The translations under genes and the position numbers were made by a program. This document shows, piece after piece, positions 1 through 11,767 of a stretch of DNA of 64,000 nucleotides (positions are counted from its first letter, which is position 1; each line of letters starts with the position of its first letter). The notes under the pieces are model-generated. The model had not been told where the DNA came from and did no database searches. It was given only the letters and a program-made list of their open reading frames with translations. Source of the DNA: Chloroflexi bacterium AL-N1 (GTDB lineage Bacteria > Chloroflexota > Chloroflexia > Chloroflexales > Roseiflexaceae); NCBI GenBank assembly GCA_013122435.1, contig WYDT01000025.1:6535-70534 (forward strand). Reading direction: 5' to 3'.

Positions 1-1822
1 TCATCGTGTAGAACAGGGATGCGCGGTATTGGTCGCCGAGAGCGATCAACCAAATCAGTATGGCGCGAACGAATTATACATCCTGACTACGATGGCCGAT
101 CACGCAGCGATTGTAATGGAAAATGTTCGTCAATATACGATAGTACGTGATCGCGCAGAACAATTGGAGATCGTAACCAGTATTACACAAGTGATTAGCG
201 CCAGCGACATTAGCCATAATCTACCAGCAACACTGCGGCGTATCATTCATCTTATTCGTCGTATTGTGCTATGCGATTACGCTGCGCTGGCATTGTACAA
301 CGATGTCGATGACACTTTCTTTGTCGAATCTGTGTATGATTTTGCTATTCAAGACTGGGCAGATCTACCGGAAGGCTGGTCGATTGCCGCTAGCGATACC
401 ACCTGGCAAACAGCATGTCGTACTGCCAGCCCGATTGTGCAGTCGAATCTTGCGGAGAGTGCCTTTGCCGAAGATCAAGCTTTGGTTGATAAAGGATTGC
501 ATTCCAGTGTGGTTGTGCCGATCATTGGTGCCAGCCATGTGCTGGGGGCTTTGACATTTGCCACACGAAAACCACGTGCGTATGAGCAAAAACAGGTATC
601 AACGCTGTTGGAATTAGCTCATTATTTAGGGCCAGCCCTTGATAATGCACGCTTGAATAAAGAGCGTGAAGAAGCTTCGATCAAACTGGCCCGCACGCAG
701 GAACATCTCAATCTGGTCGATAAAGTACGGGTAGTCGGCTTGCTGGCATCAGGTGTTGCTCATGATTTTAACAATTTGCTCGCCGGGGTATTGGGCAATG
801 CCCAACTGTTGTTACTTGAAGTAGAAGAAGAAGAGCACCGCACAATGCTCAGGGTGATCGAGCAGGCTGCCAAGGATGGTGCAGAGACGGTACGCCGGTT
901 GCAGGGCTTTGCTCGCATGGAAAATGACTCGCCGATGAGCGATGTACGCCTGGATCTGCTTGCCCGCGATGCCATTGATATCACGCGCCCACGGTGGCGT
1001 GATGTCGCACAGAGTCGCGGGGTTAAAATCGATGTGGTTCGCAAACTTGATCCGGTAACGGCAATTGCTGGTCGACCTGCCGAGTTGCGCGAGGTGTTGA
1101 CAAATCTGATCCTCAATGCCGCCGATGCCATGCCACAGGGAGGACATATTACAGTCACGTCGTACGACGAATTAGACGCTGAGGAGCGTCCATCGGCAGT
1201 CGTCATTGAGATTGCAGATGAGGGGATCGGTATATCATCGGAGATACGAGCACGTATTTTTGAACCCTTCTTTACCACGAAAGGCGAGCAGGGAACCGGC
1301 TTAGGATTAGCCGTCTCACTGGGCATTGTCGAGGGCCATGGCGGACAGATCGAGATACACAGCGAATCAGGATCAGGAGCATGCTTTATGGTGCGGCTGC
1401 CTGTGCGTGACGCAGCGATCATTAGTTCGTCACGTCAGTGCAAACCACGCGAGATTATACCTGGCCATGTGCTGCTGGTACAGAGCGATAACGTGCTGCG
1501 AGAAGCTACTACGCGCCTTCTGGAGCGCTGGGGGAATCGCGTAGAGATGGCTTGTGATGGAACCGAGGCACTCCAGGCATTTATGCCACAACGCTATGAT
1601 GTGGTACTGTCTGATATGGGCATGCCAGACATGAATGGCCAAGCGCTCCTCCAACAGATCAAACAGCAAGATCCTCACGTTCCAACCATTCTCATCACTG
1701 GTTGGGGGCATCACACTGCCGATGGAGCGGTGCAGCTTAGTGGCGTGGACTTTGTGATCGAGAAGCCTTTCGATTTAGAGGATTTACGAGAAGTATTAGC
1801 CGAAGCAATGACATCAACATAA
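1..1822 (+). CDS. Hybrid sensor histidine kinase/response regulator (GAF - HisKA - HATPase_c - C-terminal receiver); 5' end runs off the window. Frame is open from nt 2, so the listed TTG at 29 is probably internal.
   Basis: GAF-like region (VVPIIGASHVLGALTFATRK). H-box at VAHDFNNLLAGVLGNAQLL. ATP-lid motifs DEGIGI, TTKGEQGTGLGL. C-terminal REC with VLSDMGMPDMNG and phospho-acceptor Asp. No stop upstream in frame. Confidence 0.8.
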   Translation, partial: HRVEQGCAVLVAESDQPNQYGANELYILTTMADHAAIVMENVRQYTIVRDRAEQLEIVTSITQVISASDISHNLPATLRRIIHLIRRIVLCDYAALALYNDVDDTFFVESVYDFAIQDWADLPEGWSIAASDTTWQTACRTASPIVQSNLAESAFAEDQALVDKGLHSSVVVPIIGASHVLGALTFATRKPRAYEQKQVSTLLELAHYLGPALDNARLNKEREEASIKLARTQEHLNLVDKVRVVGLLASGVAHDFNNLLAGVLGNAQLLLLEVEEEEHRTMLRVIEQAAKDGAETVRRLQGFARMENDSPMSDVRLDLLARDAIDITRPRWRDVAQSRGVKIDVVRKLDPVTAIAGRPAELREVLTNLILNAADAMPQGGHITVTSYDELDAEERPSAVVIEIADEGIGISSEIRARIFEPFFTTKGEQGTGLGLAVSLGIVEGHGGQIEIHSESGSGACFMVRLPVRDAAIISSSRQCKPREIIPGHVLLVQSDNVLREATTRLLERWGNRVEMACDGTEALQAFMPQRYDVVLSDMGMPDMNGQALLQQIKQQDPHVPTILITGWGHHTADGAVQLSGVDFVIEKPFDLEDLREVLAEAMTST

Positions 1823-1906
1823 CTCCCAGCACCAACTTGCGTTGTAGGTCTGATAATGCTACTATCGGCATAGAACCTGGTTTGAAATGAAAATGAAGGA
1901 ACGCTC

Positions 1907-3043
1907 ATGAAGCTGCATGAATATCAAGCTCGTGACATTTTGGCGCGGTACAAGATTCCTGTAACCGGTGGTGGTGTCGCTAGTACTCCCACAGAAGCCC
2001 GACGTCTCGCTGAGCAGATCGGTGCAAAAGTTGTCGTGAAAGCACAAGTTTTTGTTGGTGGACGCGGTAAGGCCGGTGGTGTGAAGTTGGCCAATACCCC
2101 TGAGCAAACAGAGCAGATCGCTGGACAAATTCTGGGCATGGACATCAAAGGTCTGACAGTGGAAAAAGTGCTCGTCGCTGAGGCAATTACCTATGAGCGT
2201 GAGATTTATCTGGGCGTCGTTATGGATCGTGGTTCTAAGCGTATTACCCTCATGGCCTCATCCGAGGGCGGTGTCGAGATTGAAGAGGTTGCCAAAACAA
2301 ACCCCGATGCCATCGTTCGCATCGCAGCCCATCCAACACTCGGTTTGCTCGACTACCAGGCACGCGAGTTAGCCTTTGGCATTGGCTTGAAAGACGGCAA
2401 ACAGGCTCGTCAGTTCGCCAGCATTGCGATGGCCCTCTATCGTGCGTATATCGAAAACGATGCCGATCTGGCAGAGATCAATCCACTGGTTGTACGCGCA
2501 GATGGATCACTGCAGGCCCTCGACTCAAAGATGGTGCTCGACGAAAGTGCGCTCTACCGCCATCCTGATCTGGCCGCCATGCGCGACTCTTCCGATGAAC
2601 CAGAGGCAGAGCAACAGGCACGCGAGGCTGGCATCACGTTCATCAAGCTCGATGGCAACATCGGATGTATGGTAAATGGGGCTGGTCTGGCCATGGCGAC
2701 CATGGATGTCGTTAAATTGTATGGGGGCGAGCCAGCCAACTTCCTTGACATCGGTGGTGGTGCGGGCAAGGATAAAGTCAAAGCCGCCCTCCAGATTATT
2801 TTGTCTGATACTAATGTTAAGGCAGTGATGTTCAACATCTTTGGTGGCATTACCCGTGTTGATGAAGTCGCACGTGGTATTATCGCAGCACTCGAAGAAG
2901 TCCAGACTGACGTGCCGATGGTCGCACGTCTGGTTGGCACGAACGAAGAAGAAGGTCGCAAATTGCTGGCCCAGTCTTCCCTGATACCGGCAGCAACACT
3001 GGCAGAAGCAGCAGAAAAAGCCGTCGCAGCATCAAAGGGTTAG
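1907..3043 (+). CDS. sucC: Succinyl-CoA synthetase (ADP-forming) beta subunit
   Basis: Collinear with E. coli SucC over its full length: [70 protein letters not shown] Shine-Dalgarno (SD) sequence 8 nt upstream of the ATG. No sucD follows. Confidence 0.85.
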
Positions 3044-3073
3044 AGAGCACAATTACCAGAAACCAATCGATTA

Positions 3074-3131
3074 AGACCTCCGCAATGAGTCAGGATATAT
3101 GATCTGGCTATTAGCGGAGGTCTGTTTGTGT
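3074..3131 (+). terminator. Candidate intrinsic terminator after sucC: 10-bp stem AGACCTCCGC/GCGGAGGTCT with a large loop, then GTTTGTGT.
   Basis: Perfect 10-bp inverted repeat at 3074-3083 and 3114-3123, 30 nt after the sucC stop, followed by a U-rich run. The 30-nt loop lowers confidence. Confidence 0.3.
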
Positions 3132-3843
3132 CCATACCCAATCACTTTTCGCTGGGCACTAAGCATGACGACGGCGAGATGCCACCGAGCTACGAGATCG
3201 ATGAACAAATTGGAAATAATGTGGTTACGAAAGACTGTAATGAAATATTACGTCATAAAAGGCATAAAAGATAACCAATGACACATTTAGGATGTAATGC
3301 TGAAAAAAGGTCATTCGTCAACATAATTGCAAAATTATACTTTTTAATAGTAAGACTCGCAAAATATGTTATGCACATGTATAATCTACAAAACGATCAT
3401 ATCTCCAAAATATCACGTATTTAGCCTTTATAACGTTACAAACGCATGCTTTATCTTATAAAACCACATAAAAAACTACAATGACGGCAAATGATATCCC
3501 TGTCATTGTAACGTACTTTTCTAGCTATTCGGATCACAAAATATATTAATTGGTATTTTTCTACCAAAGCGTTTTAGCCATTCTGATCAAGTAATCTATA
3601 ATTTCAAGCTGTTTTAGCAAGAATATGGATAAAAAGTAAAAAACAGAAAAATCAAACTTAGATTGAGTGAGGAGATGCAGAGTTTTGCAGAAGAGCACCG
3701 GAAATCTTCTAAAAAATAAAAAATCTGTTATACACAGATAAATACTATAACATGAAGTAAATCATGCCTCTTTTTAAACAAGTTACGAATTCTGTTTTGT
3801 CATAAGTATGATCTCCATCAAGTGAAGGCAAACTCTATTTTTT

Positions 3844-3884
3844 AGACCTGAGAGAACTTCGATATTCTTCAGGTCTCTTTTGTA
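3844..3884 (+). terminator. Strong hairpin plus U-tract (intrinsic-terminator-like) 18 nt upstream of the 3902 ATG; possible end of an sRNA or a leader attenuator.
   Basis: AGACCTGAGAGAA-cttcgata-TTCTTCAGGTCT gives a 12-bp stem with one bulge. It is followed by CTTTTGT. Confidence 0.45.
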
Positions 3885-3901
3885 TCTGTGGAATTATACA
3901 C

Positions 3902-4564
3902 ATGAATACGCACAACAACGTGACAGTAATTCCCTGTTATAAATTGTTACGTTCGAACGACTCTTCGCAGGTACGCCTGATCCAGGTGGTGCTGGCGATC
4001 ATCCTGGCACTGGTGGTGTTGCCGGTGCTTGGCCAGGCGATTCTGCGTTACTTTGTACCACAGGAGGTTGATCCATTTCCCCCAGTCGGAGAAACATATC
4101 AACCAGGTGAAGCGCCTCAAACACTCATGGCAGCAACTATGCCTCCAATATCAACGGCAATTTCACTGGACGAAGAGGAAATTGAGCAGATTGAGCAATC
4201 TATCAATTTTTCACTGTTGGTGCCAGGTTACGTACCAAATGAGTGTTACTGGCAATCATATCGTGTCATTCTCAATGGAGTACAACTTTCTTATACATGT
4301 CTCTGCATAAACCAACAACAAGTGCAAAATGTGCAACAGCCACGTTTTGGAGAAGGTTCGACAGAAGAAGTGAGCGTCGGAAACAACCCGGCTTTTTACA
4401 TACGCGGAAATTGGATGCAATTGGAAGGACAAAACGAGCCGATCTGGGTAGGAGATGCTGGATCATGGTTAATATTTGAGCATGATGATATTATTATACG
4501 TTTGCGAACTGGTTCTTTGACTAAAGAAGAGCTGATCAGAATCATTGATTCAATGTTGGAATGA
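3902..4564 (+). CDS. Hypothetical membrane-anchored protein (one N-terminal TM helix, acidic linker, C-terminal globular domain of unknown function)
   Basis: 220-aa ORF with hydrophobic segment VVLAIILALVVLPVLGQAIL. Lies inside an AT-rich islet. No recognisable catalytic motif. Confidence 0.5.
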   Translation: MNTHNNVTVIPCYKLLRSNDSSQVRLIQVVLAIILALVVLPVLGQAILRYFVPQEVDPFPPVGETYQPGEAPQTLMAATMPPISTAISLDEEEIEQIEQSINFSLLVPGYVPNECYWQSYRVILNGVQLSYTCLCINQQQVQNVQQPRFGEGSTEEVSVGNNPAFYIRGNWMQLEGQNEPIWVGDAGSWLIFEHDDIIIRLRTGSLTKEELIRIIDSMLE

Positions 4565-4577
4565 CCTAACAAAAGAA

Positions 4578-4615
4578 AAAGCTGGCCAGATCTTACATAA
4601 TTTCTGGCCAGCTTT
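4578..4615. terminator. Bidirectional hairpin terminator between convergent genes. T-tract is on the minus-strand side, so it mainly serves the 4647-4970 minus gene.
   Basis: Perfect 13-bp inverted repeat AAAGCTGGCCAGA / TCTGGCCAGCTTT with a 12-nt loop. The minus-strand reading is followed by TTTTTCTTTTGTT. Confidence 0.5.
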
Positions 4616-4646
4616 CCAGATTGATTATCGTTTAGCGTTCATGATC

Positions 4647-4970
4647 TTAAGCTACTGCTTTGCCAATCAATGAGCTACCAATAGCGATTAACTCATTACG
4701 TGAGAGCAGCGCACCTTGCATTTCGAGCAAAAATGGTCCATACTCCCACAAGAACACCTGTATATCGAGCATACCACCGGGTTGATTGTCGACAGGTACT
4801 GTAAAGGTGTAAAAAGCTGCCGGATGCCTTCCTATTGTAGCTGTTTCAAGGGCAAATGGAACGTCTCTCGTTTCCGGCTTATCATAGAACTGTTTTAATG
4901 ATAAACCACCATCCATTAGTACCTTTGTAATGGACAATAGTGCCAAGAACGTCATCGGACGATGACGCAA
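4647..4970 (-). CDS. Hypothetical protein (107 aa); may be the 3' part of a frameshifted gene whose 5' part is the overlapping 61-aa ORF 4882..5067
   Basis: Both ORFs are on the minus strand in adjacent frames and overlap by 89 nt. The 107-aa frame opens immediately after a TAA and starts on TTG. Neither has a convincing SD. Confidence 0.3.
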   Translation of the reverse strand: MRHRPMTFLALLSITKVLMDGGLSLKQFYDKPETRDVPFALETATIGRHPAAFYTFTVPVDNQPGGMLDIQVFLWEYGPFLLEMQGALLSRNELIAIGSSLIGKAVA

Positions 4971-5067
4971 TCCTTAGCACACGAGCCAGCTTCATATCAA
5001 ACGACTGAAGTTGAGCAGGTTGTAGCAACGTAGGCTCCGATAGTTGCCGCATCTCTGCCTGGAACAT
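4882..5067 (-). CDS. Hypothetical 61-aa ORF; possibly the N-terminal fragment of a frameshifted gene together with 4647..4970
   Basis: ATG-initiated ORF that overlaps the following ORF in the -1 frame. No family recognised. Confidence 0.2.
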   Translation of the reverse strand: MFQAEMRQLSEPTLLQPAQLQSFDMKLARVLRIASSSDDVLGTIVHYKGTNGWWFIIKTVL

Positions 5068-5090
5068 AGGGCGTGACTCGTAGACAGATC

Positions 5091-5168
5091 CTACATTGCC
5101 TGATTGGGCTTGAACTCCATTAGTTGCGCTTTGAATAATCTTAACACTACCAGGTTTATGATGGTCAT
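5091..5168 (-). CDS. Candidate 25-aa small protein MTIINLVVLRLFKAQLMEFKPNQAM with a near-perfect SD
   Basis: AAGGAGA lies 8 nt upstream of the ATG on the minus strand (rc of 5176-5182). The ORF sits directly downstream of the Cys-rich protein gene. Not in the supplied ORF track because it is under 60 aa. Confidence 0.25.
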   Translation of the reverse strand: MTIINLVVLRLFKAQLMEFKPNQAM

Positions 5169-5219
5169 AATTTACGTTCTCCTTCTATATAATTTAAGTA
5201 AGATCTCATACTGATGTAT

Positions 5220-5630
5220 TTAACATCCTGCGGCATTACAGCTTAGATACGTTTTTGTATAGCAAAATCTGCCATCTGAACTATCATAGCAATCGTAAGC
5301 TACCAATTTGTCAGGAATACCTTGATTGCAATGTGAAGGCCTGGGACAAGATCCACAACTTCTCCTACACATTGTAACAGAGCCACCATAGTGACAATTA
5401 ACCGACTCACACCCAACTCCAGCTAGCGCTTCCCTGGTGTTTTGCCTACTCAGCAGTCCTGCACCTGCCAACACACCACTTAGTTTGAGCAACCACCGTC
5501 GGGAAGGACTGCTGGGCGGAAGAAGTTTGTAGGCCAACTGCGTGTGAGTACCCTCGCGGTGCATCAGTTGCCACACCTGCCATGCCGAACGGGGGCCAAT
5601 GAGTAACCCAAGGTGGAGGGCAGCATGCAT
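5220..5630 (-). CDS. Small secreted cysteine-rich protein with a twin-arginine (Tat) signal peptide; the true start is probably an internal Met (MHREG...)
   Basis: Tat signal: SRRWLLK consensus, then hydrophobic LSGVLAGAGLL and an ALA-G cleavage site. The ~66-aa mature part carries 12 Cys (CESVNCHY..CRRSCGSCPRPSHC..DCYDSSDGRFCYTKTYLSCNAAGC). It shares a frame with the upstream DCC-fragment gene, separated by one TAG. Confidence 0.45.
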   Translation of the reverse strand: MHAALHLGLLIGPRSAWQVWQLMHREGTHTQLAYKLLPPSSPSRRWLLKLSGVLAGAGLLSRQNTREALAGVGCESVNCHYGGSVTMCRRSCGSCPRPSHCNQGIPDKLVAYDCYDSSDGRFCYTKTYLSCNAAGC

Positions 5631-5651
5631 CCCACGCCACGCCTGAACCTG

Positions 5652-5834
5652 CTACGCGTCTACAAAGACAAGATAGGTGCCATGGTCCGCAGGATACACA
5701 CGATCGAGCAATGTCCTGGCTGTGTCATCGTGAATACTCACCACAGTGATTTGATCGCCAACCACCGCTTGCACCTGTCTGGCGAGTCGGCTACAAACAG
5801 AACATCCCGCGTCGAACACTAAGTAGCGTTCCAT
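5652..5834 (-). CDS. DCC-family (DUF393) thiol-disulfide oxidoreductase-like protein, N-terminal half only (60 aa)
   Basis: MERYLVFDAGCSVCSRLARQV... fits the DUF393 N-terminal consensus (vvfYDGdCplC..., then ITVVSIHDD...). AAGGAAAGGAA SD upstream of the ATG at 5834. The ORF stops after ~60 aa, whereas family members run 110-140 aa. Confidence 0.45.
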   Translation of the reverse strand: MERYLVFDAGCSVCSRLARQVQAVVGDQITVVSIHDDTARTLLDRVYPADHGTYLVFVDA

Positions 5835-6106
5835 GATTCCTTTCCTTTCATGTAAAAATAGATTATCTACATACCTAAACACACTAAATCGTATAAATTC
5901 AGCGTAAGTAAGCCATTTTTATATAGACATCATATTTTGAAATAAATACACATTTTCCACATCAAATATGATCAAATAGCAGTAAAGTAATGATATAACA
6001 ATGAAGAACAAATGATAAGGAGATAATCGTAACAACTCACGAGAGAGAAACAATCTTCATTATTAGTACGAGGGTTTAGCCTCGTGCAGCTTCAGTCCCG
6101 TGTAAC

Positions 6107-6136
6107 AGGAAAAAACGCCCGAGGGGAAACCCTCGG
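6107..6136 (-). terminator. Rho-independent terminator of the acc-mcr-pcs transcript
   Basis: Minus strand, 40 nt after the pcs stop: CCGAGGG-TTTC-CCCTCGG then GCGTTTTTTCC. A 7-bp GC stem with a tetraloop and a U6 tract. Confidence 0.7.
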
Positions 6137-6175
6137 ACGCATGTGTTCTCAAACATCTTGTCAGATTGTGGAAGA

Positions 6176-9100
6176 CTACGTGGCGTTGGTCATTTCTTCC
6201 CAGGCTGCGTAAAGATCGTCCTTCGTCTTCAAACCAGCACGTGGCAAGGCATGATTGACGATGTATGTTGCACCGGCGTGACGGTTGTCCCACATCTCCT
6301 GGTGGGCCCGTGCCAATTCATCCCACTCAACCAACTCTGGCTCGGTGATGCTGAGGAGACCTGCGCTGATTTCGTCGTTCAGCCGCAGAATTTCGTGGGC
6401 ATTACAGAGGTGTGTTCCCCAGATATTGGCCGTCGGCATGTAAATGCGCCGTTGACGCATCCAGATCTGTGGTGCAAAGAATGAATAGCGCTGGTTATCC
6501 ATGTTTTCGTAGTATATAATCCGACCAGTGTAAGGTTTCACCAGCATCGAACTTACTGCTAATGTATCATGGCCAGCACGCTCAATGATGAGATCAGGAT
6601 ATCCACGTGGGTTTTCTGCGCTACGCAACAACGATCCAACCGCACCCCCCAGAGGTTTGAAGGTTAGGTCATTGAAGTCCCGTATCGCATCCTTGAATCC
6701 TTGGAGATCGACACGCGCTTCAGGCAATTCCGGCATAGTTTCAGGCCAATCAAATTCATCACCATAACGGCGCTTAAGCGTCTCTACACTGACCACACCC
6801 TTGAGTGAAGCACCAAAGCCAAGACTTAGCACAAACTCACGTTGAGCATCAGTATAGGTAGCCACAACAATACGCGCGCCTTTGACACGAGCCGCTTCAA
6901 TGGCTTCCAGCCCGACCTGATCAACCAGATGATCCGCCTGTGTGGCGCTTGTTTGACCTGGTTTCACATCTTTGGCATCTACACCATAGTAAATCAAGAC
7001 CGCTTCACCGGCACGAAGATTGGCTCGCTGGAGCATCTCAATCGGGTCTACGGCGCCTGGCTTACCTAAAAATGTAAAGTGATAGCCACTACTCGCACCG
7101 TAGAATGTCAACGTTGGAATATGGCCATCGTGTGGTTCGCCAAGTATTTGGAAGCTACGAGGGAAGGCTTGCTCACCTGCGTGTGAGACGGCATAGTCAG
7201 CCAGATGTCCATCATTCTGAGCACGGAAGTCATCGAGCAATGCACGCCCGGCCTGTTCCCATGCCCGCCACTGCGCCGGATTTGCAGGAACCCGTGTAAA
7301 GCAATCCTTGTAACGTGGATCTTTCCGGTTAAGGCTCCCCTGTGCCCCAGCCTGGCGAATCGTCTCGGCCCGTGCAGGACTACTCACCATACCCATTGCA
7401 CGAAGACCATTACGCGTTGAGGAGTGTACCGCATCCAGTCCGGTACCTGTGGCTGCACCTTCAATGAAGATCGTACGTCCTGGCTGGATTTGCAGGATCG
7501 TGAACAGTGCGCGATAAATAGTTCCCAGATTCAGAATATAGCTTCCGGCTGACTCAAGCGACAGGTCGGGCGGCAATGGCATACACTGTGGTGCCTGGGC
7601 AAGCATAAACTGTTGATGGGAGCCATCTGGTGTATTGTAGCCCTGAATACCGAAGTCGGCAAACATCGGATCGAGGCCCTGCATTGGCGAAAGGAGATCG
7701 CTCTGACCACTATAGATCGTGACCAGATTACCAACCTTGAGACGGCCCTGCCGACGCGCCTCTTCGCCGAGTGCCGCGATGAGGCCAATCCCACCACTAC
7801 CACTAACATGCCAATCACGATCGTGTTCGTCAAACTGCGACACCGGTATGCCGGTAATGGCCCAAATGTCGTTAAAGTTGACTTCGCTGGCAAGCACATA
7901 GATCAGCGCCTCATTAGGACTCGGGCTTTCCACAGGAATCACAATCTGATGTTCGGTTTCCTCTGGATCGCCATGCATGTAGGCACCAGTCTGTTCATCA
8001 CGAACAATGGCCTGTGCATACTGCCAATTTGGCATGGGGGTAATCCCAGGGAAGAAAGGTGTCCCAATCGGTAACAGTTCGCCATCTTCGATAAACTGTC
8101 GTTCGTCCTGTGTGCCAAGGAGCGCACGACGTGTTGGGAGCGGCGCACTGCGCTTGTCGAGGAAGTCTTGAATCCCACGTTTGCCGCCTTCAGGATCGAC
8201 GACTGCCTCAGCAAACAGATACGCTTCTCGCCCCAGGCCCTGCACCAATCCGTTGGTCAAACCAAAGCGCATGGCTTCGAGCGCACGATCAACCGCTTTG
8301 GTACGGCCTGCCCTGTGTGACTGCTGCACAATACGCTCGATCCGAGGATGCCGTAACAGCGGTTCAAATTCCTCTGTCACAAACTGTTGGGCAGGAGCCT
8401 CCCACGAAGCTGTGCGTGTTTTGCGGCGCTCAAAAGCGTTGGCAAGCACTGATGCTTTCTGTGTGGGGCCATGCGCTGATCCGTTGGTTGCTTGTGCGGT
8501 ATCGCCAAGCTGCTTGCCATATTCGCGCACATACGCGGTAGCCACCGAAAGCGAATCCTGGTTGGCCTGTGCAACAATATCCACCAACCCAATGTCATGG
8601 GCTTCCTGCGCGCTGATATTGCGTCCACCAAGAATGAGTTCGAGTGCGGTTAACAACCCGTCGGTGCTGCTATTGGCGTGGAGCAAACGTGGCAGACGTT
8701 GCGTGCCACCATACCCCGGCAGCAGGCGCAGATTAATCTCTGGCTGACCAAATTCGGCGTGCATATCTGCAACACGATAGTGGCATGCAAGCGCAAACTC
8801 GAGACCACCACCCAGAGCAACACCGTTGATTGCCGCAATACAAGGCTTGTTCATCTGCTCAATCTTGCGGAAAGCCGGATGGGCGTTGTTCGGCAACGCG
8901 ATGGCATCCTCGACCGAGTGCGTCTCCTCGAGAAGCTGGCGGATATCAGCACCGGCCACAAAACTCTTGGTTCCCTGACCCGTGAAGACGATGGCTTTCA
9001 CCTCATCACGCCGCGCAAGATGGTCGACAATGGTATTGAGTTCATCAAGCGAGCGCTCATTTAAGGCATTGACCGGCGGGTTCGTAATCGTTACCACCGC

Positions 9101-11767
9101 CATTTTGGCCTGGCGTTGCGATCGCTTGGCACCAATGGGATGATACTCGATCAGGAAGTAGCGGTAGCGTTCGAAAATCTTCTGCTCCGCAGCCAGAGTC
9201 TGGAGTCGTTTCCAGTCATCGATCTTACGCTTGATCTCCTCCAGGATCTCTGGATTCCGCAGCGATGTCGTGTCTCCCAGATCTTCATCAAGCATCATGT
9301 TGCGGAGAAAGCGCCGCATGTACTTGCCGCTGCGTGTTTCGGGAAATGCGCTTATCTCGATATAATCTTCGGGCACGGCAACCACACCCTTTTCCGCACG
9401 TACCAGTTCACTGAGTCGACGACGATCCTCAATCGACAACTTGCGGCTGGCGGGCGTCAGGATAAATGCGACTGGTGTCAGACCTTTCTCACGGTGTGGA
9501 GCACCCACCACAATACAGTTACCCACCGGCGAGTCGGCGTTTTGTTGCTTGTCGCGGAGGATCGCCCCCTCGATTTCTTCGGTTCCCATACGATGGCCAC
9601 TGACGTTGATCACATCGTCGCTGCGTCCGTGGAGCGAGAAACTGCCATCTTCGTATTTCATAGCAAAGTCGCCCTGAATGTAGGCCCACTTGCCATCCGG
9701 CCCCTTGCGCCAATAGGTCTGTTCAAAACGCTCCGAGTCGCCATGCCACGCTGGGATCACCCCATCCCCAGTCATCCTGAAATTCTCTGTATCGCCCCAG
9801 ATCGTACGTGCAAGATAGGGATAGGGCGTGGTGATCACGATCTCACCTTTTTCCTCATAATCAGCAACACGATACTGATGGCTGGTCTGATCTGTGTCTG
9901 TTGCGCCGTCGTTCGTCCATACATCACCGACAACCCAGGGCAGCGGATAGGTGCGGGCATCGGCGCGTAAAGGGAAGTCGGCATTACCAAAGAAATGCGT
10001 CCAGACAATACCACCGTGCTCAGTGGCCCAGTAAGAATTGATATATTGTGGCGACATGACGTCCATACCGAATTGCTGGACCGCCGGACTGACGGGTTCC
10101 GCGCAGAAGGTACATACACGCAGCGTACTCATATCGTACTGACGCACATCAGCAACATTCTGCGAGTCGGTCATCACGCTTTTGAGAAAGGTGACACCGG
10201 CTTTAAAGATGTTGACACCGTAGCGTTCGATAATGCTGGAAAATCGACCAGAACTGGGGAAAACTGGTGCGCCCTCTGCAATAATACCAGTGCAACGGCT
10301 ACTGAGTGTGGCCGTAATCATATAACTCTGACCAGTAATCCAGCCCGGATCGGCAATCACATAGACGACATCGCCTGGTTCCGCATCAAAACTAACACCC
10401 ATTGTGTGGGTCAGGCCCGCCGTGTAGCCACCGTGTACATGGACAACCCCCTTCGGCTTGCCGGTACTACCACTGGTGTAGATGATAAACAGCGGGAAAT
10501 CGGCATCAAGTGGTTCTACCGGACTGGTGGCATACAGGGCTTTGATAAATTCAGCAGTTGGAAGATTGAGCAATTCCTGCTCATTCTGAACCTGAACCCC
10601 CGCGAGACGCGCTTGCTCCAGAATACCCTGCATCGCCGTCTCAAGCAGATCGTGGCTCCAGACATCGCGCTCAGGCCGCCACAAAATATCGTGGCCAGTG
10701 TGGCGCACCACAATGACCTTGTCGACTCGCGGCGGTGCACCAACCAACGCCTGTGCAATGGCTGTACGAATACGTGATTGTGTGGCCGCATCGAGCGTAC
10801 TCAAATGATCGAGGGCCCGCCCGACGCCGCGCATCACATCGCTGCGTTCAATCGTTACTTCGCCCTTGATGGTGCGATCAACCTCTGCCAGGATATGTTC
10901 AGCGGCCTGCTTGTCGACAAGCATTGTGGCATCACTATGCAGCGTTGTACGAACCATCTCCAGCGCAACCTCAACGGGAATAAACTTGTCGAGCGCCTGG
11001 TCGGTGTACACCTCTTTGTACGTCACGATCTGGGCATTACGATAACCACCATCACTGGTGATGATGACACGTGCACCTGCGTTGTGGATGCGGTCGCTCA
11101 ACGTTTTATCGCTAAACCCACCAAAGACCGGCGTGTAGATAATACCCAGGCGTTTGGCTGCCTCTGTGTAATAAATCTGCTCAACGATGTTCGGCATGTT
11201 CAGCGCGATACGATCACCCCGCTGTAGCCCAAGGTTACGTAATACCTGAGCCGCCTTCACGACTTCGAGCAAAAGGCGCTTGCGGGTAACCGGGTAACTC
11301 ACCAGCGGACCACCACGCCCCTCATTAAGCGAGGAGTCCCAGCGGTCACCCTCAAAGTAGAAGGCCGCTTCGTCACCATGGCCCATCAGCACATGGCGAT
11401 CTACCTCGTTGAAACAGGCGTTGGTCAATCCACCCTCAAACCAGCGATAGAATGGCGCAGCATCGTCATTGAGCGACCTTTTCCATGGAAGATGGTTTGC
11501 ATTGTATGGAACATCAACTTCGGCCCCAGTTTTGGCATGCAGTCCGGTCCAGCGTTGTTGTTTTTCATCCCAGGTAATCCAGGCATCAAGTGTGCGGTCG
11601 TACCAGTGGATGGCCGAGCGAGCAATGGCACCCTGAAATACACCGGGGTTGTCCACAAATGCCTGGCGTTGTGCTTCCCAATCAGCGCGTGTACGAATTG
11701 TATTGATACGGGGTGAACGTAAGCGTTCAGCCCGTTCTTGTTCAAAAGAAGAAGTGGTTTTACTCAT
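6176..11767 (-). CDS. pcs: Propionyl-CoA synthase, trifunctional (acyl-CoA synthetase - enoyl-CoA hydratase - enoyl-CoA reductase), 3-hydroxypropionate bicycle
   Basis: 1863-aa ORF. AMP-binding motif IIYTSGSTGKPKGVVHVHGGY. Central crotonase segment VVTITNPPVNALN...FVAGADI...GVALGGGLEFA. C-terminal MDR-type reductase. Near-collinear with Chloroflexus aurantiacus Pcs from memory (WATEHGGIVWTHF, GRSDDVINVSGHRMGTEEIEGAIL). Confidence 0.9.
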   Translation of the reverse strand: MSKTTSSFEQERAERLRSPRINTIRTRADWEAQRQAFVDNPGVFQGAIARSAIHWYDRTLDAWITWDEKQQRWTGLHAKTGAEVDVPYNANHLPWKRSLNDDAAPFYRWFEGGLTNACFNEVDRHVLMGHGDEAAFYFEGDRWDSSLNEGRGGPLVSYPVTRKRLLLEVVKAAQVLRNLGLQRGDRIALNMPNIVEQIYYTEAAKRLGIIYTPVFGGFSDKTLSDRIHNAGARVIITSDGGYRNAQIVTYKEVYTDQALDKFIPVEVALEMVRTTLHSDATMLVDKQAAEHILAEVDRTIKGEVTIERSDVMRGVGRALDHLSTLDAATQSRIRTAIAQALVGAPPRVDKVIVVRHTGHDILWRPERDVWSHDLLETAMQGILEQARLAGVQVQNEQELLNLPTAEFIKALYATSPVEPLDADFPLFIIYTSGSTGKPKGVVHVHGGYTAGLTHTMGVSFDAEPGDVVYVIADPGWITGQSYMITATLSSRCTGIIAEGAPVFPSSGRFSSIIERYGVNIFKAGVTFLKSVMTDSQNVADVRQYDMSTLRVCTFCAEPVSPAVQQFGMDVMSPQYINSYWATEHGGIVWTHFFGNADFPLRADARTYPLPWVVGDVWTNDGATDTDQTSHQYRVADYEEKGEIVITTPYPYLARTIWGDTENFRMTGDGVIPAWHGDSERFEQTYWRKGPDGKWAYIQGDFAMKYEDGSFSLHGRSDDVINVSGHRMGTEEIEGAILRDKQQNADSPVGNCIVVGAPHREKGLTPVAFILTPASRKLSIEDRRRLSELVRAEKGVVAVPEDYIEISAFPETRSGKYMRRFLRNMMLDEDLGDTTSLRNPEILEEIKRKIDDWKRLQTLAAEQKIFERYRYFLIEYHPIGAKRSQRQAKMAVVTITNPPVNALNERSLDELNTIVDHLARRDEVKAIVFTGQGTKSFVAGADIRQLLEETHSVEDAIALPNNAHPAFRKIEQMNKPCIAAINGVALGGGLEFALACHYRVADMHAEFGQPEINLRLLPGYGGTQRLPRLLHANSSTDGLLTALELILGGRNISAQEAHDIGLVDIVAQANQDSLSVATAYVREYGKQLGDTAQATNGSAHGPTQKASVLANAFERRKTRTASWEAPAQQFVTEEFEPLLRHPRIERIVQQSHRAGRTKAVDRALEAMRFGLTNGLVQGLGREAYLFAEAVVDPEGGKRGIQDFLDKRSAPLPTRRALLGTQDERQFIEDGELLPIGTPFFPGITPMPNWQYAQAIVRDEQTGAYMHGDPEETEHQIVIPVESPSPNEALIYVLASEVNFNDIWAITGIPVSQFDEHDRDWHVSGSGGIGLIAALGEEARRQGRLKVGNLVTIYSGQSDLLSPMQGLDPMFADFGIQGYNTPDGSHQQFMLAQAPQCMPLPPDLSLESAGSYILNLGTIYRALFTILQIQPGRTIFIEGAATGTGLDAVHSSTRNGLRAMGMVSSPARAETIRQAGAQGSLNRKDPRYKDCFTRVPANPAQWRAWEQAGRALLDDFRAQNDGHLADYAVSHAGEQAFPRSFQILGEPHDGHIPTLTFYGASSGYHFTFLGKPGAVDPIEMLQRANLRAGEAVLIYYGVDAKDVKPGQTSATQADHLVDQVGLEAIEAARVKGARIVVATYTDAQREFVLSLGFGASLKGVVSVETLKRRYGDEFDWPETMPELPEARVDLQGFKDAIRDFNDLTFKPLGGAVGSLLRSAENPRGYPDLIIERAGHDTLAVSSMLVKPYTGRIIYYENMDNQRYSFFAPQIWMRQRRIYMPTANIWGTHLCNAHEILRLNDEISAGLLSITEPELVEWDELARAHQEMWDNRHAGATYIVNHALPRAGLKTKDDLYAAWEEMTNAT

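Follow-up and report, generated by a model that had tools for sequence, protein, structure and literature searches.

A Chloroflexota pseudogene and its intact relatives point to a rare protein family that joins a DCC-like domain, a Tat-type signal and a cysteine-rich tail

Introduction

Ordinary DCC proteins (DCC1-like or DUF393, Pfam PF04134) are stand-alone, cytoplasmic and about 120–140 aa long; they carry an N-terminal DxxCxxC motif in a predicted thioredoxin-like fold, and in the DUF393/DCC literature we found nothing of mechanistic use. Thioredoxin-like proteins also serve as dedicated accessory proteins of disulfide-containing bacteriocins, such as PedC for pediocin, BdbA/BdbB for sublancin and the bacteriocin transport accessory protein of S. 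pneumoniae (PDB 1zma). These act in trans, usually outside the membrane, and the bacteriocins leave the cell by ABC transporters or Sec. In the Tat pathway proofreading is carried out by the REMPs (TorD, DmsD, NapD), chaperones that are separate proteins and bind the signal peptides of molybdoenzymes. Tat signals themselves are defined by an RR motif, an h-region, a basic c-region and an AxA site (PMC7317946). A twin-arginine signal that is not N-terminal has been described for dual Sec-Tat membrane proteins, e.g. the actinobacterial Rieske protein Sco2149 (Keller 2012, PMC3471235; Tooke 2017, PMC5449189), in which Sec-inserted TM helices lie upstream, the domains are cofactor-bearing and the Tat-dependent helix stays in the membrane to anchor the protein (PMC3471235, PMC5449189).

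The locus considered here lies in a 64-kb stretch of DNA, which as a whole is termed the window. Its protein family shares with DCC1-like proteins the N-terminal DxxCxxC motif and the predicted fold, but its members extend further, with a Tat-type signal and then a Cys-rich tail, and in the window copy a stop codon divides the frame. As in the dual Sec-Tat proteins, the RR motif and a weakly hydrophobic segment are found far from the N-terminus, in front of a C-terminal globular domain that would cross the membrane folded; unlike in those proteins, a soluble thioredoxin-fold domain comes first, an AxA site lies after the signal, the cargo is tiny and Cys-rich, and Tat dependence is predicted. 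Compared with the bacteriocin accessory proteins, the thioredoxin-like domain is fused in cis, ahead of the signal, and its site of action would be the cytoplasm. The REMPs are similar in concept, as a cytoplasmic factor would engage the Tat precursor prior to export and only matured cargo would be transported; with no relationship in sequence or fold, this is an analogy only. With regard to the genomic setting, the relatives carry a canonical ECF sigma factor and a DUF4367 anti-sigma factor beside the gene pair, as in known modules of this kind, whereas the window has no sigma gene and a truncated anti-sigma gene.

Results

The reading frame at positions 5220–5834 on the minus strand comprises 204 codons including an in-frame TAG, which codon alignment with the relatives places at codon 61 (5652–5654). 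ORF A runs from the ATG at 5834 to this TAG, encodes 60 aa and begins MERYLVFDAGCSVCS; ORF B shares the frame, starts 21 nt further on with the ATG at 5630 and reaches its stop at 5220–5222 after 136 aa. Both ORFs, and a strong SD sequence in front of the first, had been described in an original prediction for this DNA, which read them as a two-gene unit. The SD sequence is present as GAAAGGAAAGGAATC-ATG and is identical in four lineages, but the relatives contradict the two-gene reading. Three related Chloroflexota contigs (L001, L002 and L005) encode one uninterrupted protein of 206–207 aa (intact orthologues P0002, P0003 and L005:8001–8621), and at the position of the TAG they have a Glu codon, GAG in L001 and L002 and GAA in L005. 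The prediction itself had proposed looking for a single full-length protein at this locus in other genomes, and its presence speaks against two genes. In a tblastn comparison residues 1–207 of P0003 cover window positions 5834–5223 at 71% identity. Across the four lineages the frame shows a dN/dS of 0.16–0.28 at a dS of about 0.7, so it is a real coding sequence and no chance ORF, and because the window copy falls in the same range as the intact copies among each other, its inactivation is taken to be recent. Reassignment or read-through of TAG was rejected, since TAG is an ordinary stop codon here and ends 14 of the 41 long ORFs of the window, including those of pcs and sucC. Taken together, the alignments demonstrate at the sequence level a single gene, in which a recent GAG-to-TAG change turned codon 61 into a stop and thereby inactivated it. 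Elsewhere in the 64-kb window we found no further copy of the fusion gene, its partner or the sigma factor.

A search of 5.8 billion proteins yielded seven intact clusters in addition to the 136-aa ORF B fragment of the window itself. All intact members (186–213 aa) have one common layout, with the DxxCxxC domain followed by the Tat-type signal at about residue 113 and a hypervariable tail, which by sequence marks the fused architecture as a very rare and undescribed protein family. When the tail region, from the RR motif to the end, was used in an exhaustive HMMER search of 1.84 billion representatives, the real matches were P0002 and P0006, both of them fused; three further candidates (P0004, P0005 and P0007) turned out on inspection to be repetitive low-complexity proteins and were dropped as homologues. 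A stand-alone Cys-rich Tat mini-protein, as had been predicted for the second gene, had no homologue among the 1.84 billion representatives or the 5.8 billion clustered proteins. A conserved N-terminal part is combined with a hypervariable Cys-rich C-terminal part, a pattern that a RiPP or bacteriocin precursor would also show. We recognised no modification enzyme, peptidase or transporter consistently adjoining the family genes, and their consistent neighbours are limited to a DUF4367-like partner and the anti-sigma factor.

The DCC-like domain, predicted to adopt a thioredoxin-like fold, occupies positions 5556–5834 on the minus strand and is interrupted by the TAG. Its DxxCxxC motif near the N-terminus (D8-A-G-C11-S-V-C14, with DAGCSVC encoded at 5793–5813) contains three residues, D8, C11 and C14, which are invariant in all eight family members. 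PF04134 is the sole Pfam family to match this domain. It does so in six of the seven members (best E 3.9e-5, positions 1–86), with all family scores below the gathering cut-off of 27.8 bits. ORF A covers only positions 1–42 of the 113 positions of the model (E 0.008, 17.9 bits, thus below gathering), in agreement with the predicted truncated N-terminal piece of a DCC-like protein. If the TAG is read through, the match widens to positions 1–86 and reaches 23.7 bits, the same score as for P0003. The stop codon hence separates profile positions 1–42 from 43–86, so that neither window polypeptide holds a complete domain, and by profile alignment the second half of the DCC domain is the start of ORF B. 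The window copy carries further lesions: a 6-bp deletion in the YPADH codons (5682–5696) took out the Gly-Trp pair (G50, W51) that is invariant in the family, and A46, P55 and R76, likewise invariant among the eight members, are substituted.

The Tat-type signal of the window copy, SRRWLLK-LSGVLAGAGLLS-RQNTREALA, is encoded at 5421–5504 on the minus strand and was recognised by its motif and by a match to the Pfam model TAT_signal (PF10518; E 8e-4 on ORF B, 19.7 bits against a cut-off of 22.7). The predicted Tat leader with SRRWLLK, a hydrophobic stretch and ALA is therefore present, with a sub-threshold profile match. PF10518 matches five of the seven members, always below threshold, and TIGR01409 matches two of the seven (best E 0.005, under the curated cut-off); weak matches to the Tat regions of formate dehydrogenase and DmsA/YnfF also occur in several members. 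All eight members have the two arginines and the K at +5, e.g. SRRRFLK in P0006. In all intact members the RR lies at residue 112–114, after the folded domain and away from the N-terminus, as it did in the ancestral protein of the window; only in the truncated ORF B does it come to lie near an N-terminus. The uncharged stretch of the h-region measures 11–16 residues in seven of the eight members, with a mean Kyte-Doolittle hydropathy of 0.7–2.2, the c-region contains an Arg in 7/8, and a small-x-small motif for cleavage is found in each of the eight (ALA, AFA, TSA, VSA or VLA). We found no experimentally studied precedent in the literature for a Tat signal about 110 residues into a protein, behind a soluble folded domain.

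The Cys-rich tail is encoded at 5223–5411 on the minus strand, directly next to the stop codon at 5220–5222, and contains 10 Cys. The 12 Cys originally attributed to the second gene are those of the whole read-through protein including the CxxC pair, and the mature peptide, put at about 66 aa, has 67 aa if counted from behind ALA and 63 aa if counted from the first Cys on. Homologues down to 38–44% identity keep the RR motif, the AxA site and each of the ten Cys positions, so out-of-frame debris lacking conservation is not what this segment represents. Across the whole family the tails contain an even number of Cys in 8/8 members (10–16, or 16–31% of residues), 4–14 aromatic residues and nearly no His. 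Merely six Cys columns align family-wide; CxC and CC motifs are common in P0008, P0009 and P0011. The proposed HiPIP-type or metal-cluster ligation found no counterpart, as neither HiPIP nor other Fe-S proteins matched in Pfam (E<=1 for ORF B, E<=0.1 for the family), NCBIfam or a PDB sequence search, and the even Cys count also argues against it. The Pfam, NCBIfam and PDB sequence searches equally gave no match of the tail to metallothioneins or any other Cys-rich family. With a pLDDT of 35–53, AF2 gave no reliable model of the tail, and a fold comparison would have had no meaning.

In related Chloroflexota the fusion gene is part of a four-gene module between pcs and sucC, a position that is conserved. 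The fusion gene is followed by the DUF4367-like partner, and these two are convergent with the genes of the DUF4367 anti-sigma factor and the ECF sigma factor. Both regulators are encoded in L001 and L005, the ECF sigma factor with matches to Sigma70_r2/r4 and Sigma70_ECF and the anti-sigma factor as a protein that spans the membrane once and has DUF4367 as its ectodomain. The partner, called with 171–176 aa in the relatives, resembles this ectodomain (hhalign E 1.4e-5) and adjoins the fusion gene on its downstream side in two distant lineages at 28–29% identity. In the window it is a pseudogene at 4647–5168 on the minus strand: one base pair is missing at 5151/5152, one is inserted at 4896, and the frame from its ATG reaches a stop after 25 codons. 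On the plus strand, 3902–4564 holds a remnant of the DUF4367 anti-sigma gene, consisting of the TM segment and the ectodomain (residues 112–315 of the 314-aa orthologue). A deletion (about 957 bp, junction near 3961) removed the N-domain of the anti-sigma factor along with the entire ECF sigma gene; tblastn detected no remnant of the sigma gene in the window, and anti-sigma matches begin only at residue 112. Between the convergent anti-sigma remnant and partner pseudogene lies a hairpin (4578–4615), probably a bidirectional terminator. Sequence comparison thus documents damage to all four module genes in this genome, while the neighbouring 5.6-kb pcs ORF and sucC are intact and the remaining window is densely coding. 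From the nonsense codon together with the damage to the whole module, ORF A and ORF B are established as fragments of one pseudogene and not as a two-gene operon.

Upstream of the fusion gene, the leader or promoter region at 5835–6000 (minus strand, SD GAAAGGAAAGGA) is more strongly conserved than the synonymous sites of the gene itself. The window leader has a 46-bp deletion upstream and a mutated putative anti-SD element. Evidence for a structured leader RNA consists of a weak fold (z -1.8 to -2.4) with no covariation, and Rfam searches over 2900–6300 gave chance-level matches only. The predicted pcs terminator was located as a hairpin at 6115–6140. The description of the locus as an AT-rich islet is correct for the spacers (34–38% GC) but not for the reading frame, whose 52% GC exceeds the window mean of 48.5%. 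Of the two origins that had been offered, decay agrees with the nonsense codon, the lost invariant residues and the damaged neighbour genes, whereas recent acquisition is contradicted by the conserved synteny between pcs and sucC in the relatives; on this comparative evidence the locus is a decaying, recently inactivated module and no acquired islet. Separately, GC falls to 29–32% along 3200–3700; the surrounding AT-rich segment (3125–3745) contained no repeat, ORF or RNA match and had no counterpart in the relatives.

Discussion

We regard one inactivated gene within a damaged four-gene module as the best overall explanation of this locus (probability about 0.78); the mechanism of the intact protein is graded separately below. 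It is very unlikely that ORF B is instead a functional stand-alone gene, translated from the ATG at 5630 or 5564 into a Tat-exported Cys-rich mini-protein, with the DCC half as debris. Such a gene would profit from usable ATGs, the one at 5564 with an SD-like AGGTG 9 nt on its 5’ side, from a retained RR motif, h-region, ALA and all 10 Cys, from a dN/dS that is not raised and from an upstream leader that is still well conserved. With its ATGs, Tat features and ten Cys in place, ORF B may retain some residual expression. Against this, every relative among the 1.84 billion representatives and the 5.8 billion clustered proteins is fused, the internal Met with which ORF B begins is not kept across the family, the three neighbouring module genes are all destroyed, and the leader has suffered the 46-bp deletion and the mutation in the putative anti-SD element. 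Moreover, comparison with L004, a separately assembled contig that is 99.99% identical to the window and hence no truly independent genome, reveals one difference in 11.6 kb, and this sole polymorphism (position 5270, Gly to Arg) is nonsynonymous and located in the tail. L004 shares the TAG, the 6-bp deletion, the partner indels and the other lesions with the window, which also bears on whether the organism has an intact gene and the TAG and frameshifts arose as errors of sequencing or assembly. The sequence probably comes from a metagenome-assembled genome, and L004, being nearly identical, may stem from the same population; yet an error would have had to produce the same substitution and both indels in a separate assembly, as well as four kinds of lesion within 3 kb (nonsense, 6-bp in-frame deletion, two indels, ~957-bp deletion) next to an undamaged 5.6-kb pcs ORF and sucC, and consensus assemblies rarely hold substitution errors. 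We therefore consider an artefact extremely improbable.

For the intact ancestral protein we propose a chain of steps which, taken jointly, we advance tentatively and at appreciably less than even odds. The 105-residue DxxCxxC thioredoxin-fold domain would remain in the cytoplasm, and the segment after it would be a genuine Tat-type signal, consisting of RRxhhK, a weakly hydrophobic Gly/Ala-rich h-region of 11–16 residues and AxA, with a basic residue that may serve Sec avoidance. The 10–16 Cys of the C-terminal tail (45–71 residues) would pair into 5–8 disulfides, which the tethered CxxC domain may make or check prior to export, and the signal would then take the tail across the membrane in pre-folded form. 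Signal peptidase would free a small, hypervariable, disulfide-rich peptide, for which the soluble DUF4367-like partner and the homologous anti-sigma ectodomain are candidate binders; such binding would tie the peptide to the ECF sigma factor. Regulation by this sigma factor is a candidate suggested by gene adjacency. A more far-reaching version, which we think quite unlikely, is that of a new class of self-maturing Tat cargo, in which the oxidoreductase leader would oxidise or proofread its own tail and the peptide would be read by DUF4367 domains, as part of an unknown signalling or antimicrobial circuit of Chloroflexota.

The RR-hydrophobic segment might also be an uncleaved signal anchor, in which case the product would be a bitopic membrane protein, its thioredoxin-like domain in the cytoplasm and its Cys-rich part outside, and no peptide would be released; it might, for instance, sense redox state or envelope stress together with the ECF sigma/anti-sigma pair. 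The segment is internal (residue 112–130), AF2 gives a helix at 114–128, the ECF sigma/anti-sigma pair adjoins the gene, and membrane-retained internal Tat-dependent TM segments are known in dual Sec-Tat proteins (PMC5449189). However, with 11–16 residues, as found in 7/8 members, the uncharged stretch is too short to span the membrane stably, a small-x-small motif follows 8–14 residues further on in all members, and a hypervariable tail suits a released effector or ligand better than a sensor, which makes an anchor unlikely. Alternatively, the tail might bind a metal or a cluster (as a metallothionein-like, Fe-S or Cu module) and depend on Tat because it is loaded before export, in the cytoplasm. 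Tat substrates are often cofactor proteins (PMC7317946), and the Cys content of 16–31% as well as the frequent CxC/CC motifs in P0008, P0009 and P0011 would fit. Against it stand the searches, which at E<=1 or E<=0.1 matched no HiPIP, ferredoxin or metallothionein, together with the even Cys count in all eight members, the 4–14 aromatics with His almost absent and the fact that only six Cys columns can be aligned; disulfide chemistry would also be the more direct use of a tethered thiol-disulfide oxidoreductase domain. We judge metal binding to be rather improbable.

For the window locus, our results mean that it is properly annotated as one pseudogene in a decaying ECF-sigma module, instead of two small genes. 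The relatives reveal a very rare architecture, in which a Tat-type signal and a hypervariable tail, always with an even Cys count, come after a folded thioredoxin-like enzyme domain. If Tat does handle this family, a natural Tat signal would be workable about 110 residues into a protein, behind a soluble folded domain. The fusion would then also represent a built-in answer to the task of exporting disulfide-rich peptides in folded form, and the under-studied phylum Chloroflexota would harbour a candidate new family of secreted peptides together with their DUF4367 receptors.

A single gene split by a stop codon

The minus-strand frame 5220-5834 is divided into two ORFs. ORF A (60 aa, ATG at 5834 to TAG at 5652-5654) starts MERYLVFDAGCSVCS and is preceded by GAAAGGAAAGGAATC, and ORF B (136 aa, ATG at 5630 to stop at 5220-5222) begins 21 nt past this TAG in the same frame. 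In Pfam the DCC1-like model (113 positions) matched ORF A over positions 1-42 only (E 0.008) and TAT_signal matched ORF B (E 8e-4), both under the curated cut-off. With X in place of the TAG, the DCC match covered positions 1-86 of the profile (E 1.2e-4), which places the domain's second half at the start of ORF B.

ORF B was searched against 5.8 billion proteins, and three clusters were returned: a 136-aa ORF with 99% identity, and two proteins without an interruption, 206 and 207 aa long, which start MERYLVFDAGCSVCS and share 76% and 69% identity with ORF B. A third intact copy is present in a Chloroflexota MAG (locus L005, JBCDFA010000003.1). The codon alignment places the window TAG opposite GAG, GAG and GAA in relatives, so that the stop arose by a single G-to-T change, and the original prediction of a two-gene unit is wrong. 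In the same alignment a 6-bp deletion has cost the window copy a Gly-Trp, and five residues that are invariant in the 8-member family alignment (A46, G50, W51, P55, R76) are all deleted or substituted in it. Of the window's 41 long ORFs, 14 end at an ordinary TAG, pcs and sucC among them. The dN/dS of the window copy against its relatives (0.16-0.28, dS about 0.7; intact copies among themselves about 0.2) indicates that purifying selection acted on the frame until recently. The locus is an ordinary pseudogene of recent origin. The earlier observation is partly confirmed. Relatives preserve the Tat-like and Cys-rich character that it described. ORF B contains 10 cysteines rather than 12.

Decay of the module between pcs and sucC

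In the loci L001 and L005, which carry intact copies, the gene order is pcs, fusion gene, partner (171-176 aa as called), a DUF4367 anti-sigma factor (313-314 aa) and an ECF sigma factor (197 aa), the last two convergent to the fusion gene and partner, and sucC. Relatives hold the module between these two genes, pcs and sucC, as well, so that the recent acquisition suggested originally as an alternative to decay did not take place. In the window the partner is a pseudogene (4647-5168, minus strand) that has lost one base at 5151/5152 and gained one at 4896, reading 25 codons from the ATG to an in-frame stop. The ECF sigma gene is absent, the anti-sigma match begins only at residue 112, and blastn revealed that about 957 bp are missing in this region, with the junction near 3961. 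What was the 5' region of the sigma gene now runs into the part of the anti-sigma gene that encodes the transmembrane segment and DUF4367; the open ORF left behind (3902-4564, plus strand, 220 aa, new N-terminus MNTHNNVTVIPCYKLLRSND) might be an orphan membrane DUF4367 protein, possibly still expressed. The neighbourhood decays as one unit, and coding density is high in the rest of the 64-kb window. Every lesion of the module is also present in L004, a separately assembled Logan contig (SRR3311153), which differs from window positions 1-11630 only at base 5270, a nonsynonymous Gly-to-Arg difference within the Cys-rich tail of the pseudogene.

Bordering the decayed module, the propionyl-CoA synthase-type fusion pcs (6176-11767, minus strand, 1863 aa, with ACS, enoyl-CoA hydratase and reductase domains) is intact, and both it and sucC (1907-3043, plus strand) are under strong purifying selection (dN/dS 0.02-0.05 against relatives). 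The AT-rich islet noted originally holds only for the spacers, but the reading frame itself has 52% GC. In the spacer that separates sucC from the site of the lost sigma gene, about 620 bp at 29-32% GC (3125-3745) form the minimum-GC stretch of the window; this stretch has no counterpart in L001 or L005, and no ORF, Rfam match or repeat elsewhere in the window was found for it. The spacer separating the pcs terminator from the fusion gene carries a 46-bp deletion at 6047/6048 relative to L001, L002 and L005, where relatives read TTTTCACGCGACGTGGAAGCTCACACCACAATTGTTTATTTGCTCA, and the promoter of the fusion-partner operon might have been in the lost 46 bp. The roughly 165 nt preceding the fusion gene (5835-6000, minus strand) show higher conservation than its synonymous sites. 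In the predicted fold of L001:5835-6000, CUUUCUUU pairs with the Shine-Dalgarno sequence AAAGGAAAGG (z -1.8, no covariation); the window counterpart of CUUUCUUU is mutated and this pairing is gone. The leader could be a translational control element.

The intact family

A profile search gave eight clusters, namely seven intact proteins (186-213 aa) and the 136-aa ORF B fragment of the window. When the region from the RR motif to the end was run exhaustively with HMMER against 1.84 billion representatives, the only matches were fused proteins and three low-complexity false positives. In all members a DxxCxxC domain (about 95 residues) is followed by a linker and, at residue 111-114, by an [S/G/A]RRxhhK motif. 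Next come an uncharged stretch rich in Gly and Ala (11-16 residues in 7 of 8 members), an Arg in the c-region (7 of 8) and, in all, a small-x-small site; with the RR motif, these make up the feature set by which Tat signal peptides are defined (PMC7317946). Tat-signal models, as well as the Tat regions of formate dehydrogenase and of DmsA/YnfF, were matched weakly by several members. The tail (45-71 residues) is hypervariable in sequence, with an even number of cysteines in every member (10, 10, 10, 14, 14, 14, 16, 14).

In two distant lineages the fusion gene is again followed by the partner gene (28-29% identity, E 1e-18 to 8e-21); the L009 copy, uncalled as a gene, was found by tblastn. The partner and the DUF4367 ectodomain of the anti-sigma factor are related by hhalign (E 1.4e-5). 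The partner has no signal peptide or transmembrane segment (L006:5167-5664; L009:1403-1855), unlike the anti-sigma factor, whose homologous domain is extracytoplasmic; it may work within the cytoplasm or leave it together with the fusion protein.

Proposed mechanism and known systems

Since the N-domain cannot pass the membrane ahead of its own signal, it would be kept in the cytoplasm. Judging by the even cysteine counts and the tethered CxxC domain, the tail would be oxidised and folded ahead of Tat export and then set free as a disulfide-rich peptide. A metal-binding tail is a less likely alternative. Release would fail if the signal were an uncleaved anchor, but the segment is short and weakly hydrophobic and carries an AxA site, more like a cleavable Tat signal than a stable anchor, and we consider anchoring the less likely reading. 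That ORF B alone keeps a residual function is improbable; neither the profile search nor the HMMER scan contained a stand-alone Cys-rich homologue.

The N-domain resembles the DCC family in motif, fold and best HMM match, although it scores under the curated threshold. Twin-arginine signals away from the N-terminus have their nearest precedents in dual Sec-Tat membrane proteins, where the signal comes after transmembrane helices and the cargo is a cofactor-containing domain (PMC3471235, PMC5449189). The thioredoxin-like accessory proteins of disulfide-bonded bacteriocins offer a functional analogy, acting in trans. Limited literature searches turned up no account of a Tat signal with a thioredoxin-fold domain fused in front of it.

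Given its hypervariable sequence and the two DUF4367 domains encoded close by, the released peptide may serve as an extracellular ligand or effector tied to ECF-sigma signalling. What makes the locus interesting is the rare architecture seen in its intact relatives.
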